Of a stretch of 24,931 nt of DNA, positions 3,065 through 24,904 are shown piece by piece. The position numbers and the translations under genes are program-made. Location of the stretch: assembly GCA_041694815.1 (NCBI GenBank), contig JBGFSC010000031.1:1-24931 (forward strand). The letters are read 5' to 3'. A model generated the notes under the pieces. That model saw only the letters and a list, made by a program, of their open reading frames with translations, was not told where the DNA came from and ran no database searches. Each line of letters begins with the position of its first letter. Within the stretch, counting starts at the first letter, position 1. The stretch is from Elusimicrobiota bacterium (GTDB taxonomy: Bacteria; Elusimicrobiota; Elusimicrobia; UBA1565; JACRDR01).

Positions 3065-3751
3065 ATGAAAGCCTGGATAATCGCGTTGCTTACCAATGCC
3101 GTTCTCGCCTCCTCTTATCCTCTAGTCGACGCCGATATTACCGCCTTCGATAGAACGATTACGGAAATGGAGCGCCGCTTTAGCGGTAGGCCCAAAAATG
3201 CTCATGACAAAAAATGGGTCAAGGCCAAGTTATCGCATATGTTTAAAGTCGACCAGCATCTTCGAACATTCGCGATGGAAACGCCTTTAAAGAAATCATA
3301 TTCCGGCGAAGAAAAACGGTACTTCTGGGAGAAATTAGGGCCTCGTTGGAAAATGATCGATCATCGAAACACGACGGACTTAAAGGAGCTGCTGGCGGTC
3401 TACGGATGGATTAAGATTAGCGAATTCGGGGAGGAAGCCGACAATGCGGCCTGGCTGCTGGTCCAACACGCCGATGACGATCTCGCTTTTCAAAAAGAGA
3501 CGCTTATAAAGTTAGCGGCGCTCTATCCCGCGGGTGAAACAAAGCCATCCCACTATGCCTATCTCTACGATAGAGTGGCCATTCATGAAAATCGGCCGCA
3601 GCTATACGGCACTCAAGGGCGATGCGTCGCCGGAACTTGGGAGCCTTTCCCGATCGACAGTCCCGGGGAAGTCGATGAACGCCGCAAGGCGATGGGGCTG
3701 GAACCGCTTTTAGAATATAAGCAACGCTTTCAGGGCGCCTGCGATAGCTAG
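3065..3751 (+). CDS. Secreted hypothetical protein, last gene of the paralog operon
   Basis: ATG is immediately after the TAA of paralog 5. Signal peptide MKAWIIALLTNAVLASS. Contains blocks such as AWLLVQHADDDLAFQKE and YAYLYDRVAIHENRPQLYGTQ; I could not assign a family. Its stop overlaps the convergent mazF stop. Confidence 0.7.
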   Translation: MKAWIIALLTNAVLASSYPLVDADITAFDRTITEMERRFSGRPKNAHDKKWVKAKLSHMFKVDQHLRTFAMETPLKKSYSGEEKRYFWEKLGPRWKMIDHRNTTDLKELLAVYGWIKISEFGEEADNAAWLLVQHADDDLAFQKETLIKLAALYPAGETKPSHYAYLYDRVAIHENRPQLYGTQGRCVAGTWEPFPIDSPGEVDERRKAMGLEPLLEYKQRFQGACDS

Positions 3752-4098
3752 ACGCCGCGCGGATTCAACAACACCAGGAGCTTCTCGATGACTTCCCCTA
3801 AGATCGCCTCTGAAACCCTGCAACAAAACCGGGAATCCCTGGCTTGCCAATCCAAGCTCCTGACCTGATCGGCGAGCGCGACGCCGGAAACCCTCAAGCC
3901 CGGAGGCAATGAAACCTCAAAAGGGTAACCCTTCACCTGGCTTGTAATCGGGCAAAAGATCGCAAGTCCGACCTTTCGATTATACCCTTCGGGAGAAAGC
4001 GTCAGAGCCGGCCTATGGCCAGCCTGCTCGTGCCCCGCTTGAGAAGCAAAGGAAAGCCAAACGACATCGCCGCGTTTCGGGCAATACGGCTGCGGCAT
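3748..4098 (-). CDS. mazF: MazF/PemK-family endoribonuclease toxin
   Basis: The 116 aa product aligns along its length with E. coli MazF: GDVVWLSF..GHEQAGHRPALTLSP, GLAIFCPITSQVKGYPFEV, GVALADQVRSLDWQAR. Confidence 0.85.
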   Translation of the reverse strand: MPQPYCPKRGDVVWLSFASQAGHEQAGHRPALTLSPEGYNRKVGLAIFCPITSQVKGYPFEVSLPPGLRVSGVALADQVRSLDWQARDSRFCCRVSEAILGEVIEKLLVLLNPRGV

Positions 4099-4341
4099 TC
4101 ACCAGGTCTCTTGTCCGGCCCTGCGACCCCAATCCTGTTCGTCGTGACGATTCTTCCGGGTGACGCCTTTGAGCATTCTTGAAAGCGAGTACCTTCGTTC
4201 ACCCTTTGGTTTTACGACGATCTTTCCCTCCACGACGGCCACCTCGACCACCGTGCCCTGATGCAGGCGCACATCTTTGGCAAGCGAGCTTGGGATACGG
4301 AGGGCCAGGCTATTTCCCCATCTTTGAACGGTCGCATTCAT
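4099..4341 (-). CDS. mazE: MazE antitoxin (AbrB/SpoVT swapped-hairpin family)
   Basis: 80 aa. VQRWGNSLALRIPSSLAKDV...GKIVVKP...DWG..W mirrors E. coli MazE (VKRWGNSPAVRIP...IDWGEP..VW). Lies directly upstream of mazF on the same strand. Confidence 0.8.
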   Translation of the reverse strand: MNATVQRWGNSLALRIPSSLAKDVRLHQGTVVEVAVVEGKIVVKPKGERRYSLSRMLKGVTRKNRHDEQDWGRRAGQETW

Positions 4342-4369
4342 GGCAGGCTCCCCAGGAGTATCTACAATG

Positions 4370-4397
4370 AGTATACCTCATTATCCGCAGATGTCAA
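4370..4397 (-). promoter_or_regulatory. Putative mazEF promoter: TTGACA-N16-TATACT with GAGTAT direct repeats
   Basis: The minus strand reads cTCTTGACAtctgcggataatgaggTATACTcattgtagatactcctGGGGAGcctgccATG. The -35 is perfect, the -10 near consensus, and a GGGGAG SD lies 7 nt before the mazE ATG. Confidence 0.5.
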
Positions 4398-4427
4398 GAG
4401 CTTGATTCCTTAACGAGCCCCAACTCG

Positions 4428-4853
4428 TCAACCGCCACCCTTAAGCGGCAAAGCCCTAAGTCGAACAAGCTTCCCCAAATGCTCGAATTCCGGATCCTTA
4501 TGCACCAGCGTGGCGCCTAGTCGCTCAGCGGTCGCAGCGACCCAAGCATCGGCTACGGAAAGCTTATGCCCGGCCTTTATTCGCGCGGCCGCAAGCCCTA
4601 ATGGCTCGTCGCTCTCAACGGTCTCAACGGGAAGCTGCTTGAGCTCGAGTATGCCTTGGCGAGCCGCCGTCTCGCCCTGCTCCTGCTCGAGAACATAGGC
4701 GAACTCCATGATCGACATGAAACTAATAAAGACCCGCCCGTTCTTCCCTTCTCGCCTAAGGATCAACTCCACTTCGGCGGCGCCGGGCTCGTTCTCTTTC
4801 AGGCAGAGCAAAGCCGACGTATCCAGAACGAAGGTTTCAACGGCGGGAGGCAT
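4428..4853 (-). CDS. vapC: PIN-domain ribonuclease toxin (VapC-like)
   Basis: 141 aa beginning FVLDTSALL, with acidic PIN residues spaced as in VapC. The start overlaps the upstream small antitoxin gene by 17 nt. Confidence 0.8.
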   Translation of the reverse strand: MPPAVETFVLDTSALLCLKENEPGAAEVELILRREGKNGRVFISFMSIMEFAYVLEQEQGETAARQGILELKQLPVETVESDEPLGLAAARIKAGHKLSVADAWVAATAERLGATLVHKDPEFEHLGKLVRLRALPLKGGG

Positions 4854-5061
4854 CTTCCCTACGGCTAGCCAACAAGGCCTTTGTTAAGCCCTTGGGAGCC
4901 GATCCGCGGAACGCGGAAATAGGGTCTTTGGCTACCGGGAGCACGTAGATCACCTTACCATCCTCCGCCCACTCCAGGCGCTGATGCGCCTTGAGCTTGA
5001 AGCGCTTGCGGATTCGGGCCGGTATCGCCGTCTGTCCCCGCTCGCTGAGTGTAGTCACCAT
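4837..5061 (-). CDS. vapB: AbrB/MazE/SpoVT-type antitoxin (VapB-like)
   Basis: 74 aa. SERGQTAIPARIRKRFKL is a swapped-hairpin DNA-binding N-terminus. Directly precedes and overlaps vapC. Confidence 0.7.
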   Translation of the reverse strand: MVTTLSERGQTAIPARIRKRFKLKAHQRLEWAEDGKVIYVLPVAKDPISAFRGSAPKGLTKALLASRREDASRR

Positions 5062-5067
5062 AAGCCT

Positions 5068-5096
5068 AGTATAACAGTCGTCCGGAACCGCGTCAA
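5068..5096 (-). promoter_or_regulatory. Putative vapBC promoter TTGACG-N17-TATACT; transcript predicted leaderless
   Basis: The minus strand reads ctacTTGACGcggttccggacgactgtTATACTaggcttATG. Only 6 nt separate the -10 from the vapB ATG. Confidence 0.5.
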
Positions 5097-5153
5097 GTAG
5101 TTTTCAATAAATTACATGTAAATAATAAATATTGGCATGCGGGCACAGTGATT

Positions 5154-5205
5154 GCGTTTCTGCGGATTTTACTTCCAACGTTGGAAGTAAAATTAACAGA
5201 AACGC
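5154..5205. repeat. Nested AT-rich palindrome: 26-bp perfect palindrome TTTTACTTCCAACGTTGGAAGTAAAA (5167..5192) flanked by GCGTTTCTG / CAGAAACGC arms
   Basis: Read directly from the sequence. It sits in the AT-rich gap between the small ORF downstream of valS and the vapBC promoter, at the GC-content transition. Confidence 0.6.
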
Positions 5206-5207
5206 AT

Positions 5208-5378
5208 CTAGGCGCAGCGCCCGCAGCCCTGCGGCGGGCAGGAGGGACCCGGCTCAAAATCCTTAGCGCCTCCGCCTTTCTTTAATCCTGGAACCTTGTC
5301 CGAGACCTTGACCACCTTGCCGAGCTTCTTGTCGAAAACATAGGTTCCCGTCGCCTCGTCCTTCGTATTGGTCGCCAT
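5208..5378 (-). CDS. Small hypothetical protein (56 aa) with C-terminal C-x4-C-x2-C motif, coupled to the valS stop
   Basis: Not in the ORF track (under 60 aa). The minus strand reads TGA(valS stop)cGAGGTGGatATG, an SD 5 nt upstream and a 10-nt gap from valS. Translation: MATNTKDEATGTYVFDKKLGKVVKVSDKVPGLKKGGGAKDFEPGPSCPPQGCGRCA. Lys-rich host-like codon usage (AAG, GAC, GTC, CTC), unlike the R/P/G-rich frame artefacts. Confidence 0.45.
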   Translation of the reverse strand: MATNTKDEATGTYVFDKKLGKVVKVSDKVPGLKKGGGAKDFEPGPSCPPQGCGRCA

Positions 5379-5388
5379 ATCCACCTCG

Positions 5389-8085
5389 TCAATTCAAGCT
5401 GCTTAAAATTTCGCGCAGGCGGCTCTGCTTCTGCTCGAAATCGGCCTGGCGGCGGCGTATCGTCTCCACCTCCGCCTGCGGCGCGCGGGAGACGAAGGCC
5501 TCGTTCGACAATTGATTCTTGCACCGGGCCAATTGGGCGTCGATCTCCCGGGCTTCCTTCTCGAGCCTCGCGCGCTCCTTGTCGAAGTCGATCAAGCCCT
5601 CGAGCGGCACGTAGAAGGTCAGGCCCGCCGCCAAGGCCGTCGCGCTGCGCGCGGGCTTGGCCCCTTCGGCCTCCGACAGGCTTTCGAGCCGCGCCAAATA
5701 TTTTAAATAGGGAGCGTGCTCGAGCACAAGCCCCCCGCGGTCCTTGGGGCCCTCGAAATGCGCCTGGATCTTGAGTCCCGGCGGCACGTTCAGCTGCGAA
5801 CGCAGGGTGCGCAGGGCCACGACCGCTTCCATCACCGCCTCCATCCTGGAAACGTTCTCGCCGTCCTGCCAATCCCTTTCCAAAACGGGGCCGCCAGACT
5901 GGATGAGGAAATCATGCGACTGGCCGGCGAAGGCCTTAAGGGAGGCGTATAACTCCTCCGTGATGAACGGCATGAAGGGGTGCAGCATCTTGAGCGTTCC
6001 CACCAGGACCTCGACCAGGATGGCGCGGGCGGCTTCCTTTTCCTCCCCATCAATGCCGGTCAGCCGAATCTTGGCCAACTCCACGTACCAGTCGCAAAAG
6101 CTGTCCCAAAGGAAGCCGTAAAGCGTATCGGCGGCCGCGGCGAATTCATGCGCGTCCATGTTCTCGCGCACCCGGGCGAGCATACCCTGGTACTGCGCCA
6201 AGACCCATCGATCAGCCAACTCCAGGCAGCAGTGGGACAAAGACTCCAGGCGATAACCGCCTGCCGGCGGCGCCGCCGGCAGATTCATGAGCACGAAGCG
6301 CGTCGAGTTCCAGAGCTTGTTGGCGAAATTGCGCGGGCCGGTGATGGAGTCCTCGGCGAAGGGGATGTCCCGGCCCGGATGGGCCTGCGACAGCAGCGAG
6401 AATCGGAAAGCGTCGGTGCCGTATTTGTCCATCATCACCAAGGGGTCGACGACGTTGCCGAGAGACTTGGACATCTTCTTTCCGGCCTTGTCGCGCACGA
6501 TGCCATGGATGATCCCCGTCGAGAAGGGAACCCCGCCCATGAGCTCCAACCCCATCATCTGCATGCGCGCGACCCAGAGGTAGAGTATCTCGTAGCCGGT
6601 CACCAGGGCCGAGGTCGGGTAAAAATACTCCAGGTCTTTCGTCTTCTCCGGCCAGCCGAACACCGAAAAGGGCCACAGGGCCGAGGAGAACCACGTGTCG
6701 AGCACGTCGGGGTCCTGAAGCAGCGAGGTCCCGCCGCAATCGGGGCATCGTTGGGGCTTTTCCGCGCCGGGGATCCCTTTCAGGTCCGCGGCCTGATGGA
6801 AATCCTTCTCGCTTATTCCAGGATTGCACGAGACGCAATACCAGACGGGAATGCGATGCCCCCACCAGATCTGACGCGAGATGCACCAGTCGCGGATCTC
6901 CTGTAGCCATCGGCGGTACGGGTTCCTCCAGCTCTCCGGAAAAAGCCTGAAATCGCCGCGATCCAGGGCGCGGACGGCCGGCTCGGCCAGCTTGGGCATC
7001 TTCACGAACCACTGCCACGACACGAGCGGCTCGATGGCCTGGTTGCAGCGGTAGCAGACGCCGACGGCGTGTGGGTGCTCCTCGGTCTTCTCGAGGAATC
7101 CCCCGTCGCGCAAGTCCGCGGCCACCTTGTCGCGGGCCTGCTCGCGGGAAAGGCCTGAGTATCCTTCTCCGGCGTCCGCGGTCATCTTCCCGTCGGGACC
7201 GATCACCTTGATGGAAGGCAGCGAGTGCCGCTGCCCGATCTCGAAGTCATTGGGGTCATGGGCCGGGGTCACCTTCACCGCGCCGGTCCCGAAGGAGGGG
7301 TCCACGTGCTCGTCCGCCTTGACGGGGATCGTTCGCCCCGTCAGCGGGAGCTTAAGCGTCTTGCCGACCAGGGCGGCATAGCGAGAATCCTTGGGATTGA
7401 CCGCCACCGCCGTGTCGCCGAGCATCGTCTCGGGACGGGTCGTGGCCACCACCAGTCCCCGGCCGCCGTCGGCCGACGGATAATGGATATGCCAGAGCTT
7501 CCCTTTGCGCTCCTCGTATTCCACCTCGATGTCGGAAAGCGCGGTGCCGCAGCGCACGCACCAGTTGACCATGCGCTCGCCCCGGTAGATGAGCCCCTTT
7601 TCCCAAAGATGCTTGAAGGCGGCCAATACCGCCCGCGCGCGGGGCTCGTCCATGGTGAAGGCCTCGCGATCCCAGTCCAGGGCGCAGCCGAGCCGCTCGA
7701 GCTGCCCCAGGATCGTGCTCTTGCAGGCCAGGGTCCACTCGCGCATGCGCTCCAAAAATTTCTCCCGGCCCAGAGCCTGCCTCGAGCCCTTCTCCGCGCG
7801 CAGCTGCTTCTCCATGACGTTCTGCGTCGCGATGCCGCCGTGGTCGGTGCCCGGGACCCAACAGACCGCATCGCCGTTTAACCGCCGCCAGCGGACCATC
7901 AAGTCCTGGAGGGCGTTGTTGAGGGCATGGCCGATATGCAGCGCGCCCGTCACGTTCGGCGGAGGGATGACCACGACGAAGGGCCGCGCCTCGGCGGAGG
8001 GCTCGGCGTGGAAGAGCCGCGCCCGCCTCCAGGCCGAGACCCATTTCGCCTCGACGGGCCCGGGATTGTAAACCTTCTCTAGCAT
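5389..8085 (-). CDS. valS: Valine--tRNA ligase
   Basis: N-terminus MLEKVYNPGPVEAKW. Class I HIGH motif PPPNVTGALHIGHAL. KMSKS motif (GKKMSKSLGN). Editing domain. C-terminal coiled coil (EAREIDAQLARCKNQLSNEAFVSRAP). The track ORF continues 38 aa upstream to 8199 as R/P-rich text; the ATG at 8085 was chosen. Confidence 0.9.
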   Translation of the reverse strand: MLEKVYNPGPVEAKWVSAWRRARLFHAEPSAEARPFVVVIPPPNVTGALHIGHALNNALQDLMVRWRRLNGDAVCWVPGTDHGGIATQNVMEKQLRAEKGSRQALGREKFLERMREWTLACKSTILGQLERLGCALDWDREAFTMDEPRARAVLAAFKHLWEKGLIYRGERMVNWCVRCGTALSDIEVEYEERKGKLWHIHYPSADGGRGLVVATTRPETMLGDTAVAVNPKDSRYAALVGKTLKLPLTGRTIPVKADEHVDPSFGTGAVKVTPAHDPNDFEIGQRHSLPSIKVIGPDGKMTADAGEGYSGLSREQARDKVAADLRDGGFLEKTEEHPHAVGVCYRCNQAIEPLVSWQWFVKMPKLAEPAVRALDRGDFRLFPESWRNPYRRWLQEIRDWCISRQIWWGHRIPVWYCVSCNPGISEKDFHQAADLKGIPGAEKPQRCPDCGGTSLLQDPDVLDTWFSSALWPFSVFGWPEKTKDLEYFYPTSALVTGYEILYLWVARMQMMGLELMGGVPFSTGIIHGIVRDKAGKKMSKSLGNVVDPLVMMDKYGTDAFRFSLLSQAHPGRDIPFAEDSITGPRNFANKLWNSTRFVLMNLPAAPPAGGYRLESLSHCCLELADRWVLAQYQGMLARVRENMDAHEFAAAADTLYGFLWDSFCDWYVELAKIRLTGIDGEEKEAARAILVEVLVGTLKMLHPFMPFITEELYASLKAFAGQSHDFLIQSGGPVLERDWQDGENVSRMEAVMEAVVALRTLRSQLNVPPGLKIQAHFEGPKDRGGLVLEHAPYLKYLARLESLSEAEGAKPARSATALAAGLTFYVPLEGLIDFDKERARLEKEAREIDAQLARCKNQLSNEAFVSRAPQAEVETIRRRQADFEQKQSRLREILSSLN

Positions 8086-11415: not shown

Positions 11416-11470
11416 GTGGGCCTCCGGTTTGAATGATTCTGTCAAAATAAGGGCGGTGTGCGCAAGCCAG

Positions 11471-11545
11471 CGCGAAATACTCGCGAGGAACCTCGAACTC
11501 GTCGCGCGAAGCGCGACGAGTCACGCGCCCGAGGCGCGTAAAAGA
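11471..11545. repeat. Intergenic mosaic palindromic repeat, locus 1: modules D, AACCTCGAA, hairpin A, hairpin C
   Basis: D is CGCGAAATACTCGCGA at 11471..11486, also at 15160..15175. Hairpin A is CTCGTCGCGC-GAA-GCGCGACGAG at 11498..11520, identical at 24787..24809. Hairpin C is ACGCGCC-CGA-GGCGCGT at 11523..11539, present inverted at 24678..24694. Confidence 0.7.
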
Positions 11546-15159: not shown

Positions 15160-15227
15160 CGCGAAATACTCGCGAAGATGGTGCCAGGGATTGACTTTCG
15201 CCTAGGCGAAAGTCAATCCCTGGCACC
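15160..15227. repeat. Intergenic mosaic repeat, locus 2: module D, CTCGCGAAGAT linker, 48-bp perfect palindrome B
   Basis: B is GGTGCCAGGGATTGACTTTCGCCTAGGCGAAAGTCAATCCCTGGCACC at 15180..15227, an exact self reverse complement centred on CCTAGG, identical at 24718..24765. The linker recurs inverted at 24766..24776. Confidence 0.75.
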
Positions 15228-16292: not shown

Positions 16293-17311
16293 AGGCCATT
16301 CTCTTTTATGGCCCCCAGCAGATCAAGCTCGTCGACGTTCCTCTCCCCTCGCCCGGCCCGGGGCAGGTGCTGCTTAAGGTCGGAGCGGCATTGACCTGCG
16401 GCACGGATTTTAAGGCCTACCGCCAGGGGCATCGCGTGCTTTTAGGCGATCTGCCAGCTCCATTCGGCCACGAACTGGCCGGCACCGTCGTCGAGGCCGG
16501 CCCCGGCGTGAGCGGGCTTAAGCCCGGCATGCGGGTGGTGGCGGCCAATTCCGCGCCCTGCGACAGCTGTTTTTTCTGCCTCAAGGGGCAAAACCAGCTC
16601 TGCGACCGCCTCAAGCTCCATAACGGAGCCTATGCCGAGTATAATTTGCTTCCGGCGCAGATCGTCAAGCATAATGTCTACCCGTTACCGCCGGAGCTGG
16701 GCTTCAAGGAAGCGGCCCTGGCCGAACCCCTCGCCTGCGCGATCCATGCCGTCGACGTGATGCGCGTCGAGGCTGATGAGCGCGTCGCGATCATCGGCGC
16801 CGGGAACATGTCCCTGCTCTTGATCATGGCCTTAGCGCAGCGGGGCGCCCACATCACCGTGATCGGACGCAGCCCCGCGCGCCTGGCCTTGGCCGCGCGA
16901 GCGGGCGCCCACGCGACGGTGAGCGCGCTGGAGGGTGACGCGTCGCGGGCCGTCCGGGCGCTTTCCCAGGACGTCGGCGCCGACTGCGTTTTCGAGGCGG
17001 TCGGCAAGCCCGACACCTGGGAGCAGGCCGTCTCCCTCGCCCGCAAGGGGGGGCGCGTCTGCCTTTTCGGGGGGTGCTCGATGGGCACCCGCATTCCGGT
17101 CGACGCCCATCGCCTGCATTACGAGCAGCTCTGCCTCCAGGGGGTCTTCCACCACACCCCGAAATATTTCCGGCAGGCCGTGGAGCTTTTGGCCGCCGGC
17201 CGAGTGCGGACGGAACTCCTCATCGCCGACAGCATCCCGCTCGAGGAGATCCCCTCTTACTTCGAGCGGACGCACCGGCAATCGAACCCGAAGGTCGCCG
17301 TCATCCCGTGA
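16289..17311 (+). CDS. Zinc-dependent medium-chain dehydrogenase/reductase, paralog 2
   Basis: ATGA overlap with paralog 1. Motifs LTCGTDFKAY, GHELAGTV, CDSCFFCLKGQNQLC and IIGAGNMSL. Confidence 0.85.
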   Translation: MKAILFYGPQQIKLVDVPLPSPGPGQVLLKVGAALTCGTDFKAYRQGHRVLLGDLPAPFGHELAGTVVEAGPGVSGLKPGMRVVAANSAPCDSCFFCLKGQNQLCDRLKLHNGAYAEYNLLPAQIVKHNVYPLPPELGFKEAALAEPLACAIHAVDVMRVEADERVAIIGAGNMSLLLIMALAQRGAHITVIGRSPARLALAARAGAHATVSALEGDASRAVRALSQDVGADCVFEAVGKPDTWEQAVSLARKGGRVCLFGGCSMGTRIPVDAHRLHYEQLCLQGVFHHTPKYFRQAVELLAAGRVRTELLIADSIPLEEIPSYFERTHRQSNPKVAVIP

Positions 17312-18387
17312 AGAAAACCGAAGACGAATCCTGGCTTAGACGCGCCCTGGCCCTGGCCAGGCGCGGGATTCCCAAGGCCAGCCCCAACCCGCTAGTGGGC
17401 TGCGTACTGGTGAAAAACGGCCGCCGGGTCTCCGAGGGCTGGCATGCCGCCTTCGGGGGGCCGCATGCCGAGGCCGCCGCCATGAGCCGGGCGGGCTCTT
17501 CGGCGCGGGGGTCTACGGCCTACGTCACGCTGGAGCCCTGCGCGGGCGGCGGCGGTAAAAAAACCCCCCCGTGCGCTCCCGCCCTCGTGGCCACCGGGAT
17601 ACGGCGCGTGGTCGCGCCGTGCGAGGACCCGAACCCGAACGTCGCCGGACGCGGCTTTCGGGAGTTGCGCCGCGCGGGGATCCAAGTCTCCGTCGGCTTG
17701 CTCCGCGAGGAGTGCGCGGCCCTCAATCGCCCGTTCTTCGTGCGGATGCGCACCGGCCGGCCCTACGTCATCTTGAAGGCGGCCGCCAGCCTCGATGGGC
17801 GCATCGAAACCTCGCGCAGGCAGTCGCGCTGGATCACCGCCGAAGCGTCCAGGCGGCTGGCCCACCGCATGCGCGCGGAAGTGGACGCGATCCTGGTGGG
17901 GGTCGAGACGGTGCTCCGCGACGACCCGGGCCTGACGGCGCACGGCATGGGCCGCGATCCGCTGCGAGTCGTCCTGGATTCGCGCCTGAGGACTCCCGCC
18001 TCCGCCAAGCTGCTCCGGGGCCGCGCACCGGCGCTGCTGTTCACGTCGCCGCAGGCGCTCTGCCGCCGGCCGCCCGCGGGCGCGTGGGCCCTGCCGGTGC
18101 CTCAAAACGGCGCGGGCTTAGACCTCCATCAGGTGCTGGCCTCCCTGGCCTCCATGGGCGTCGGCACCGTGCTGGTGGAGGGAGGAAGCGCAGTGCACAC
18201 CGCGTTCATCGAGAAGGGCCTCGTCGACGAGCTGCGCCTGTTCCTGGCGCCCATGCTCATCGGCGGCGCCTCGGCCCGCAGCTTTTTCGAGGGGGGCGGT
18301 TTCGCTTCACTCAACCGTGCGCTCCGCTTTAAGCAGTTGCGGGTGCGCAGCCTCGGGGCCGATACGCTCGTCACCGGATACTTATAA
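17308..18387 (+). CDS. ribD: Bifunctional diaminohydroxyphosphoribosylaminopyrimidine deaminase / 5-amino-6-(5-phosphoribosylamino)uracil reductase
   Basis: GTG start overlapping the upstream TGA (GTGA). Deaminase zinc motifs HAEAAAM and the TLEPCA..G block, then the reductase domain (RPYVILKAAASLDGRI ... VLVEGGSAVHTAF). The track ORF is extended 78 codons upstream. Confidence 0.85.
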   Translation: MKKTEDESWLRRALALARRGIPKASPNPLVGCVLVKNGRRVSEGWHAAFGGPHAEAAAMSRAGSSARGSTAYVTLEPCAGGGGKKTPPCAPALVATGIRRVVAPCEDPNPNVAGRGFRELRRAGIQVSVGLLREECAALNRPFFVRMRTGRPYVILKAAASLDGRIETSRRQSRWITAEASRRLAHRMRAEVDAILVGVETVLRDDPGLTAHGMGRDPLRVVLDSRLRTPASAKLLRGRAPALLFTSPQALCRRPPAGAWALPVPQNGAGLDLHQVLASLASMGVGTVLVEGGSAVHTAFIEKGLVDELRLFLAPMLIGGASARSFFEGGGFASLNRALRFKQLRVRSLGADTLVTGYL

Positions 18388-18989: not shown

Positions 18990-20209
18990 CTAAGTTCAAC
19001 ACCGTCACGGAAGCCGTAGACGCCATCCGCAAAGGGAAGATGGTCGTGCTCGTCGACGACCCGCACCGCGAGAACGAGGGAGACCTCGCGATGGCGGCCG
19101 AGAAGGTGACGGTCGAGGCCGTCAATTTCATGGCCACGCACGGGCGGGGCCTTATCTGCGTGCCCATGCTGCCGGAAAGCCTCGACCGTCTGCGCATCGG
19201 GCCGATGGTCGACGGCGCCCCGGCCTCCGGCTCCGGCCGCGATACGGCCTTCTCCGTGAGCGTCGACGCCAAGCGCGGCACGACCACCGGCATCTCGGCG
19301 CACGACCGCTGCGCCACCATCCACGCCCTCCACGACCCGCGCGCGGTGCCCGAGGATTTCAACCGGCCAGGACACGTCTTCCCGCTCCGCTGCAAGGAGG
19401 GCGGGGTGCTGGTGCGCGCCGGGCACACCGAGGCCATCGTGGACTTAGCCAAGCTCGCCGGGTTGCGCCCCGCCGGTGTGATCTGCGAGATCCTCAACCC
19501 CGACGGGACCATGGCGCGGGTGCCGCAATTGGGCAAGTTCGCGCGGCGCCATGGCCTCAAGATGCTCACCATCCAAAGCCTCATCGAATACCGCCGCGCC
19601 AACGAGAAGCTGGTCCGCAGGCTCGTCTCGGCCAGGCTGCCCACCCGCTACGGCGAATTCGTCCTGCACCTCTACGAGGAACTCCTAAGCGGCAAGCAGC
19701 ATCTCGCCCTGGCCCTTGGTAAGGTCGCCGGCGCCAAGGAGGTGCTCATCCGCGTCCACTCCTCCTGTATCACCGGCGACACGCTGTTCTCCCTGCGCTG
19801 CGATTGCGGCTCGCAGCTGCAGCGGGCGCTGCAACAGATATCGGAGGAAGGCCGGGGCGTGCTGGTCTACCTCAACCAGGAGGGGCGCGGCATTGGGCTC
19901 TTCAACAAGATCCGCTCTTACGTGCTCCAGGACCAGGGCATGGACACGGTCGAGGCCAACAAGGCCCTTGGCTTCGAGGCGGACCTGCGCGAATACGGCA
20001 TCGGCGCGCAGATACTCGCCGACCTTGGCCTGAGCACCTTGAAGATATTAACCAACAACCCGCGCAAGATCGTCGGGATCGAAGGCTACGGCCTACGCGT
20101 GGTGCGCCGCATCCCCATACAGATTCCCTCGACAACCCATACGGAGCGCTATTTCCTGGCCAAGAAGCGCAAGATGGGCCATTGGCTGAGCGTGCGAAAG
20201 GGCTTGTGA
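18986..20209 (+). CDS. ribBA: Bifunctional 3,4-dihydroxy-2-butanone-4-phosphate synthase / GTP cyclohydrolase II
   Basis: DHBP synthase block (VLVDDPHRENEGDL, RAGHTEA), then a GTP cyclohydrolase II domain with Cys triad CITGDTLFSLRCDCG. ATG at 18986 overlaps the ribE stop (ATGA). Confidence 0.9.
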   Translation: MTKFNTVTEAVDAIRKGKMVVLVDDPHRENEGDLAMAAEKVTVEAVNFMATHGRGLICVPMLPESLDRLRIGPMVDGAPASGSGRDTAFSVSVDAKRGTTTGISAHDRCATIHALHDPRAVPEDFNRPGHVFPLRCKEGGVLVRAGHTEAIVDLAKLAGLRPAGVICEILNPDGTMARVPQLGKFARRHGLKMLTIQSLIEYRRANEKLVRRLVSARLPTRYGEFVLHLYEELLSGKQHLALALGKVAGAKEVLIRVHSSCITGDTLFSLRCDCGSQLQRALQQISEEGRGVLVYLNQEGRGIGLFNKIRSYVLQDQGMDTVEANKALGFEADLREYGIGAQILADLGLSTLKILTNNPRKIVGIEGYGLRVVRRIPIQIPSTTHTERYFLAKKRKMGHWLSVRKGL

Positions 20210-20637
20210 AGGGCGCTCGTTTCGCGATCGTCGCCTCCCGCTTTAATTCTGAGATAACCGACCGCCTCCTCCGTAACTGCCTCACGCGCCTGCGCGAGGG
20301 CGGAGTGGGCTCGAGGCACGTGACGGTCGTCCGCGTCCCCGGCGCCTTCGAGATCCCGTGGGCGGCCCAGGCCCTAGCCCGCCGGGGGAAATACCGGGCC
20401 GTCATCTGCCTGGGCGCGGTCTTGAAGGGGCAGACACCCCAAAACGACTACATCTCCGCGTCGACGATCTCGCATCTCCATGACGTCAGCCTGGCCACCG
20501 GCGTTCCCTGCATCCTCGGCATCATCACCCCTAGGACCTACGCCCAGGCCAAGGCGCGCACCCGAGGGTCCTTGGACCGCGGCCGCGAGGCGGCCGAGGC
20601 GGCGTTGGAACTAATGGAAATACGAAAGACCTTATGA
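20206..20637 (+). CDS. ribH: 6,7-dimethyl-8-ribityllumazine synthase
   Basis: ARFAIVASRFN..I.D.L, VVRVPGAFEIP, GAVLKG.T.QNDYIS. GTG overlapping the ribBA TGA. An alternative in-frame TTG at 20182 would add 8 residues. Confidence 0.8.
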   Translation: MKGARFAIVASRFNSEITDRLLRNCLTRLREGGVGSRHVTVVRVPGAFEIPWAAQALARRGKYRAVICLGAVLKGQTPQNDYISASTISHLHDVSLATGVPCILGIITPRTYAQAKARTRGSLDRGREAAEAALELMEIRKTL

Positions 20638-20655
20638 AAACGAATTGTCCCCCCC

Positions 20656-20688
20656 GCTACTCGCCCCCCCGCGGGGGGGGCGAGTAGC
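20656..20688 (+). promoter_or_regulatory. 15-bp GC hairpin (GCTACTCGCCCCCCC-GCG-GGGGGGGCGAGTAGC) ending at the nusB ATG, with an upstream competing C7 tract
   Basis: Read directly. The stem is 20656..20670 / 20674..20688, the loop GCG. The 3' arm carries the only SD-like purine run (GGGGGGGCGAG) for nusB, whose ATG is at 20689. A second C7 run at 20649..20655 could pair with the same G8 run. Confidence 0.55.
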
Positions 20689-24661
<3,973 letters not shown>

Positions 24662-24672
24662 AACAACGGCGG

Positions 24673-24809
24673 CTTTTACGCGCCTCGGGCGCGTGGCTCG
24701 GCGCGCTTTGTTTTCGCGGTGCCAGGGATTGACTTTCGCCTAGGCGAAAGTCAATCCCTGGCACCATCTTCGCGAGAAACCTCGAACTCGTCGCGCGAAG
24801 CGCGACGAG
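24673..24809. repeat. Intergenic mosaic repeat, locus 3: inverted hairpin C, palindrome B, inverted CTCGCGAAGAT linker, AACCTCGAA, hairpin A
   Basis: CTTTTACGCGCCTCGGGCGCGT at 24673..24694 is the reverse complement of 11523..11544. B is at 24718..24765. ATCTTCGCGAG is at 24766..24776. AACCTCGAA is at 24778..24786. Hairpin A is at 24787..24809. Confidence 0.75.
24689..24714 (+). terminator. Possible weak intrinsic terminator after purH
   Basis: GCGCG-tggctcgg-CGCGC stem directly followed by TTTGTTTT. Short stem with an 8-nt loop, so weak. Confidence 0.3.
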
Positions 24810-24904
24810 TCACGCGCTCAAGACTTATATGATGAATGTCGGCAGCTTCTCTGCGATCCTCGCGGAAAGTAAAATGAGGAAACTAATTCGCAGAGGAGAT
24901 TCAA

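Follow-up and report, generated by a model that had tools for sequence, protein, structure and literature searches.

The junction between ribH and nusB raises a simple question: what does a very stable stem-loop do directly in front of the start codon of a housekeeping gene, and how did it come to be there? When only the sequence had been read, the structure was seen as a possible translational attenuator, an RNA thermometer-like element or a phase-variable tract. The window that we refer to is the whole stretch of DNA that was analysed, 24.9 kb in length and derived from an uncultured member of the Elusimicrobiota.

The ribH-nusB junction and its hairpin

The genes of the cluster are arranged in the order ribD-ribE-ribBA-ribH-nusB-ligA-purH, as confirmed with Pfam, where ribH and nusB were recognised as DMRL_synthase (2.4e-44) and NusB (1.7e-34). 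The lumazine synthase gene ribH (20206-20637, + strand) starts with a GTG that overlaps the ribBA stop codon (GTGA) and ends with TGA at 20635-37, and its product is 100% identical to a recorded protein of the same contig, P0121, of 143 aa. Then follows nusB (20689-21096, + strand), with its ATG (20689-91) directly 3' of the stem. After a gap of 2 nt comes ligA (21099-23108, + strand), which in turn overlaps purH (23105-24661, + strand) in an ATGA, and the remaining junctions from ribD to purH are all overlaps or at most 2 nt long. A canonical intrinsic terminator with a U-tract lies 3' of purH (24687-24716, + strand), as seen both in a terminator scan and in the sequence, and this is likely the end of the transcription unit. 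The scan for promoters detected no promoter-like site between the hairpin and nusB, ligA or purH; TATAAT-type promoters are present elsewhere in the window. Despite the complete rib operon, no FMN riboswitch or other Rfam family was found in the whole window, including 17000-17400 upstream of ribD.

The NusB proteins of the relatives align from residue 1 of the window's NusB (MGRRRQSRE...), the NusB domain covers residues 5-128 of the product (Pfam), and on this sequence comparison the true nusB start is the ATG at 20689. The public nusB call on the contig (P0001) is truncated to 113 aa and starts at Met23 (20755); evidently, the start buried in the hairpin was rejected by the gene caller. P0001 omits a conserved N-terminal segment (16 protein letters) encoded within 20689-20757.

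The spacer between the two genes (20638-20688, + strand) is 51 nt long, which is exactly 17 codons, and it is stop-free and in frame with both ribH and nusB. Its AU-rich 5' part (AAACGAATTGT, 20638-20648, + strand) is mostly single-stranded, being unpaired or weakly paired in the minimum free energy (MFE) structure. After this come, all on the + strand, a first C7 run (20649-20655) and the 5' arm of the core hairpin (20656-20670), which is made up of GCTACTCG (20656-63) and a second C7 (20664-70). A GC (20671-72) separates the second C7 from the G8 run (20673-80), and CGAGTAGC (20681-88) completes the 3' arm and abuts the ATG. RNA folding gives a perfect 15-bp stem, 20656-70 with 20674-88, closed by the 3-nt loop GCG (20671-20673), whose last base opens the G8 run. 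The 15-bp C7/G8 hairpin of the sequence-only reading was confirmed by the fold, with the refinement that seven of the eight G pair and the eighth joins the loop. The stem, its adjacency to the ATG and the Shine-Dalgarno (SD)-like G-run in the 3' arm had been described exactly, in coordinates as well as in sequence. The 3' arm (20674-20688, + strand, G7 plus CGAGTAGC) contains the sole SD-like purine run, the G-run at -16 to -9 from the nusB ATG; the SD of the relatives is GGAG-like and located 7-10 nt upstream of the nusB start.

The core hairpin has a predicted stability of -33.7 kcal/mol at 37 °C, and the spacer together with the first 12 nt of nusB has an MFE of -42.5 kcal/mol. In the MFE structure an outer helix is built from the first C7 run and the GGG/GG of nusB codons 2-3 (ATGGGAAGG, 20691-20697), and inside this helix the A and U of the AUG sit in a small internal loop. 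The same pairing was seen also as an inverted repeat, I4, of 20 nt with 90% complementarity. The probability of being unpaired is about 0.0002-0.005 per base in the 3' arm and about 0.002 across positions -15 to -1.

The hairpin is a real feature, not a chance occurrence. A perfect 15-bp stem appeared in none of 300 first-order Markov simulations of the window, where the maximum was 14, and in 1.04 Mb of the relatives' loci there was one perfect hairpin of at least 15 bp. The initiation region of nusB (-35 to +18) folds at -37.1 kcal/mol, as compared to -2.5 to -22.3 kcal/mol for 13 other gene starts in the window; that of ligA is ordinary, -12.2 kcal/mol. Only 0.14% of the 53-nt windows were as stable as the nusB initiation region, and all of these were the hairpin itself or the 48-nt palindromes described below. 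The 101-nt context of the hairpin has a z-score of -4.6, and none of 200 shuffles was equally stable. Taken individually, C7 and G7 runs are no more frequent in the window than expected (7 matches, with 10.6 expected).

The same junction in relatives

For comparison we used 156 loci with ribH upstream of nusB, the window included, which leaves about 155 relatives. The ribH-nusB spacer is -1 to +2 nt in 115 of the 156 loci, and the 51 nt of the window is the second largest. The nearest relatives of both NusB and RibH are Elusimicrobia MAGs, and the closest full-length ones, with 67-70% NusB identity, are the loci L161 (GCA_016207485.1), L162 and L165/L166. L161 has a seven-gene order identical to that of the window, and here the ribH stop and the nusB start overlap by 1 nt (TGATG). 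In L162 the two genes overlap by 8 nt, and in L165 they are 1 nt apart. The RibH C-terminus (...ALELMEIRKTL*) aligns with the C-termini of the relatives, so the extra DNA is 3' of the ribH stop. Since the ribH stop and the nusB start of the relatives overlap or nearly touch, and the RibH C-terminus is homologous, we infer that a lineage-specific insertion brought the hairpin, 51-52 nt in all, into a stop/start junction that had been coupled ancestrally; it is seen in one genome only.

No perfect stem longer than 10 bp was found at -60 to +12 of nusB among the relatives; nearly all had 7 bp or less, as compared to 15 bp in the window. A hairpin conserved in front of nusB had been considered on the sequence alone, and the comparison speaks against it: the hairpin is absent from all of the about 155 relatives, including the closest one with identical gene order, which makes it a local oddity. 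The few relatives with longer spacers have sequences unrelated to the spacer of the window. In an Acidobacteriota MAG (L067, nusB start at 4001) the junction holds an unrelated, GC-rich and structured spacer of 115 nt, and a 155-nt region there folds at -67 kcal/mol. This locus with its unrelated structured spacer therefore means that independent insertions at the ribH-nusB junction do occur.

The closest NusB relative of all (77% identity, partial) is found on two contigs, L163 (1-310) and L164 (2-310), from the NCBI assembly GCA_006515825.1 and an ENA assembly. Both contigs open with an identical sequence that starts about 100 nt into nusB, and the ribH-nusB junction is therefore missing from both; one data set may have been assembled twice, or the region may be hard to assemble. 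Exact-protein look-ups with NusB, LigA, RibE, P0001 and P0121 gave no match. Scans of genome and metagenome collections with NusB gave at best 58-60% identity, and protein searches at best 70% full-length and 77% partial identity, none from the same species or genus. No same-species sequence was present in the metagenome, viral and protein collections, and the set of species-representative genomes gave no close relative.

The stem-loop between ribH and nusB and its origin

The explanation that we prefer, and to which we give about an even chance of being right, is that a lineage-specific palindromic insertion broke the ancestral coupling of ribH and nusB and left behind a fixed intercistronic stem-loop that damps the translation of nusB. 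A perfect-palindrome insertion of 51-52 nt would have landed exactly where the ribH stop met the nusB start in the ancestor. Within the polycistronic mRNA the insert is predicted to fold essentially irreversibly into the 15-bp GC-rich stem-loop and the outer helix, and this structure would hold the SD-like G-run and bracket the AUG. The consequence is most likely constitutive and not regulatory: the ancestral termination-reinitiation coupling from ribH to nusB would be abolished, and fresh initiation at nusB would be strongly damped. The proposed decoupling of nusB-ligA-purH from the rib genes thus survives as the most likely effect, although not as a regulated one, with overlapping or nearly touching genes in the relatives as against 51 nt and a stem of -33.7 kcal/mol here.

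Going by the known ribosome footprint, a ribosome that terminates at 20635-37 would reach no further than about 20646-48. It would come up to the base of the outer helix but leave the core untouched, and termination could therefore not open the stem. For the MS2 coat gene, de Smit and van Duin reportedly found that initiation falls steeply with the stability of the structure at the initiation region. The hairpin resembles this model in having its SD-like sequence in the 3' arm and the AUG at its foot, and thermodynamic repression is predicted. Characterised hairpins at initiation regions have stabilities of about -3 to -12 kcal/mol, however, and at -33.7 kcal/mol the stem of the window would be an effectively permanent block, not a tuning device. 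On the sequence and fold of a single contig of one MAG, which might have a peculiarity of the assembly or of the strain, nusB is probably damped. What counts against a full block is that ligA lies downstream of the hairpin without a detected promoter-like site. The ligA gene is normally essential and its loss through a full block would be costly, which leaves a leaky block or independent initiation at ligA. The latter could take place, the predicted stability of the ligA initiation region being only -12.2 kcal/mol.

The closest likeness to a known kind of element is to the REP/BIME palindromes of enterobacteria, for instance in E. coli malE-malF, which also are short GC-rich intergenic palindromes inside an operon near a stop codon, and as with these the window has other repeated palindromes. 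As RNA, REP elements fold into stem-loops that stop 3' exonucleases and shift the expression of the flanking cistrons relative to each other, and intercistronic REP hairpins stabilise the upstream mRNA in malE-malF. By analogy, the hairpin in front of nusB may act as a 3'-to-5' exonuclease barrier or processing point in addition to its probable effect on initiation. The transcript could then have different fates in its rib and nusB-ligA-purH parts. The differences are that REPs are imperfect, present in many copies and associated with RAYT, whereas the hairpin is perfect, seen in one copy in the window, which has no RAYT, and unrelated to the other palindromes.

It is also possible, although we consider it rather unlikely, that the insert is a neutral or slightly deleterious mutational relic that has no selected role, and that its effect on nusB is merely tolerated. 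It could then be the product of template switching or fold-back replication, or one copy of a REP/MITE-like palindromic element. Such an origin agrees with the absence from all relatives, with the lack of mismatches in the palindrome, which suggests a recent event, and with the other repeated perfect palindromes in the intergenic DNA of the window. That the relatives lack the hairpin is equally compatible with an adaptive event and with a recent one that was neutral or mildly deleterious. Against a relic stands that a single copy of the sequence was seen, with no extended similarity to the other palindromes, and that the window holds no RAYT or transposase gene. Furthermore, the ribH stop and the nusB start are preserved and an SD-like G-run was brought in at 8-nt spacing, which one would not expect from random junk, even if survivorship would favour just such cases.

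Perfect palindromes are unusually frequent in the window, with three of at least 15 bp in 25 kb, and two of these are identical 48-mers (GGTGCCAGGGATTGACTTTCGCCT/AGGCGAAAGTCAATCCCTGGCACC) at 15180-15227 and 24718-24765, both intergenic. Their flanks, CTCGCGAAGAT/ATCTTCGCGAG, are in opposite orientation. A TATAAT-type promoter region comes after one of the palindromes, and the other lies 3' of the purH terminator near the end of the contig, and no such palindrome was found in 1.04 Mb of the relatives' loci. They have the look of a shared operator or of a repeat of the REP/MITE-like kind. Another family of repeats, about 55 nt long (11466-11530 and 24766-24820, with a partial copy at 15160-15179), has the sequence …CGCGAAATACTCGCGAGGAACCTCGA-ACTCGTCGCGC-GAA-GCGCGACGAGT-CACGCGC. 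It adjoins promoter-like TATAAT boxes and at one site also the 48-nt palindrome. Identical 25-nt hairpins (11+3+11) with a perfect 11-bp stem are located at 11497-11521 and 24786-24810, and both these and the 48-mers are accompanied by shared flanks. A process that generates or spreads palindromes in the source genome is thus plausible.

The hairpin at nusB itself showed no extended similarity to the other palindromes of the window. Its exact stem and variable-tract pattern was absent from the relatives' loci (1.04 Mb) and present in one copy in the 24.9-kb window, and both the exact stem and the variable-tract pattern GCTACTCGCCCCC-N(2-14)-GGGGGCGAGTAGC had 0 matches in the JGI metagenome and IMG/VR collections. 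No RAYT or transposase was found among the ORFs of the 24.9-kb window. A link to the other palindromes through the heptamer TACTCGC was considered and rejected; the heptamer is enriched (9 against 1.9 expected), and its contexts are unrelated coding sequence except for two known repeats.

Some further observations were made elsewhere in the window. An ORF for a PIN-domain (VapC-like) protein at 4428-4853 (- strand), within the region 3750-5250, and a 27-nt AT-rich near-palindrome at 5153-5206, just downstream of valS (end near 5389), together look like a toxin-antitoxin islet, as judged from sequence features. The motif GGTTTAA occurs on the + strand at 631, 1811, 3051 and 13575, four times as compared to 0.93 expected, a count reached in 1 of 100 shuffles. 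Each copy is located 8-20 nt upstream of an ORF start (641, 1827, 3065 and 13594), and the motif may be a lineage-specific ribosome-binding or leader motif.

Other readings of the spacer and what the insert means

A very stable GC-rich stem-loop directly 3' of a stop codon could also be a transcription terminator or insulator lacking a U-tract, which would end the rib transcript before nusB. Hairpin terminators without U-tracts have been proposed for some high-GC bacteria, but they are contested. We find this improbable here. As noted already from the sequence, the hairpin is not a simple terminator; on the + strand the stem is followed by AUGGGAAGG and no U-tract. Downstream of purH there is a canonical hairpin plus UUUGUUUU in this same genome, and the terminator scan reports that one and not the hairpin between ribH and nusB. 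With no promoter-like site downstream, termination would moreover silence normally essential genes. We also considered a terminator on the minus strand, where a U-rich stretch lies about 12 nt past the core stem, or about 5 nt past the extended 22-bp helix, and rejected it; no convergent gene ends here.

That the insert would be an assembly or library artefact is quite improbable. The suspicion comes from the fact that it is found on one contig of one metagenome-assembled genome, with no second assembly of the species found, and that homopolymer-rich palindromes are prone to sequencing error. The insert is however internal to a 24.9-kb contig, and both flanks are collinear with the relatives and about equally distant from GCA_016207485.1 (RibH 70%, NusB 69%). 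The insert also leaves the ribH stop and the nusB start intact and spans a whole number of codons.

Phase variation, with the G8 and C7 tracts toggling nusB by slipped-strand mispairing, is very improbable. The G8 and the two C7 runs are at the low end of slippage-prone lengths (about 7-8 nt or more) and lie beside the start codon, and in this they are like the contingency tracts of Neisseria, Haemophilus and Campylobacter, homopolymeric runs near start codons. Contingency tracts, however, are located in ORFs or between the -35 and -10 boxes, where a single nucleotide matters, whereas in the window the loop absorbs the changes and the genes are housekeeping genes. The sequence-only reading expected any change in length to alter the register of the stem and the SD spacing. 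Instead, modelled variants of ±1-2 nt keep the register of GCTACTCG and CGAGTAGC, with MFEs of -40.0 to -46.7 kcal/mol and positions -15 to -1 at least 87% paired. In these variants the 3' end of the G-run remains equally far from the AUG, and the SD stays buried. The paired tracts, the second C7 and the G8, are located at the apex of the stem, so changes of ±1-2 nt merely resize the loop, and changes in the first C7 merely shift the outer helix. The lack of enrichment of C7 runs in the window also argues against phase variation, and there is no obvious rationale for switching a housekeeping operon on and off.

A regulated device, whether a translational attenuator, an RNA thermometer or a two-state switch controlling nusB, is highly improbable. 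The SD-like run and the surroundings of the AUG are sequestered, and the extra C7 run could in principle pair with the G8, from which two mutually exclusive folds had been proposed. In the MFE structure the first C7 does not compete for the G8 but pairs with nusB codons 2-3 instead, and the forced fold of the first C7 with the G8 reaches -20.2 kcal/mol as compared to -42.5 kcal/mol for the MFE, which is 22 kcal/mol worse. As regards a thermometer, the core is still folded at high temperature, with -18.9 kcal/mol at 70 °C and -10.0 kcal/mol at 90 °C. The ROSE and fourU thermometers likewise sequester the SD upstream of the start codon, but they have mismatches and melt at 30-45 °C, whereas the stem in the window is perfect and remains folded at 90 °C, and it is not in the 5' UTR of a heat-shock or virulence gene. 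The modelling thus shows a fixed structure and not a switch.

The hairpin corresponds to no Rfam family, has no BoxA nearby and is unconserved in any relative, which also argues against regulation. At the hairpin no Rfam family was found at the gathering score, and a cut-off of E<=10 gives generic hairpin noise far below threshold. In Pseudomonas, a BoxA-mediated autoregulation by Nus factors has been proposed upstream of ribH-nusB (Baniulyte et al. 2017, PMC5725501). That system concerns the same gene pair and shares the idea of a specially controlled nusB, but the BoxA is upstream of ribH and acts on transcription, whereas in the window the hairpin lies between the genes and there is no BoxA in or next to the spacer. 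The BoxA consensus GYTCTTTAANA had no match with up to 2 mismatches within 20100-20700. The nearest BoxA-like match on the + strand is located at 19897-19907 (GCTCTTCAACA, 1 mismatch), inside ribBA and about 300 nt upstream of ribH. On the - strand a match with 2 mismatches occurs at 20046-20056, and the total number of BoxA-like matches in the window is not above chance.

There is very little probability that the hairpin serves for recoding or re-initiation, with NusB made solely by ribosomes arriving from ribH. If thermodynamics allow no fresh initiation at the nusB AUG, NusB would in this case need ribosomes from ribH, and two routes are conceivable. The structure could stimulate passage through a leaky UGA into the 17-codon, linker-like peptide KRIVPPATRPPAGGASS, which would give a RibH-linker-NusB fusion, or a post-termination ribosome could cross the foot of the hairpin to the AUG, brought beside the stop by the fold. 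The outer helix starts about 9 nt after the ribH UGA stop, which is the classical spacing for recoding stimulators. The in-frame and stop-free spacer has a chance probability of about 0.2-0.25 by a rough estimate, and the Pro/Gly content of its peptide is due to the C and G runs. Among the best 120 homologues of either protein there were no RibH-NusB fusions.

The preferred reading, that a palindromic insertion split ribH from nusB, describes a one-genome oddity and not a conserved nusB regulator, and as it stands the hairpin matters little. Intercistronic palindromic hairpins are already known as a kind, and that of the window is a new single-genome example. It did mislead the automated gene calling of nusB, resulting in the 113-aa record. 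If nusB is poorly translated and this is tolerated, the case is ordinary; if read-through or hairpin-bridged re-initiation were true, it would be of real interest. The junction provides a clean natural example of a palindromic insertion that splits a translationally coupled pair otherwise almost invariant across several phyla, and it poses a testable puzzle, namely how a housekeeping gene is translated behind a stem of -34 kcal/mol.
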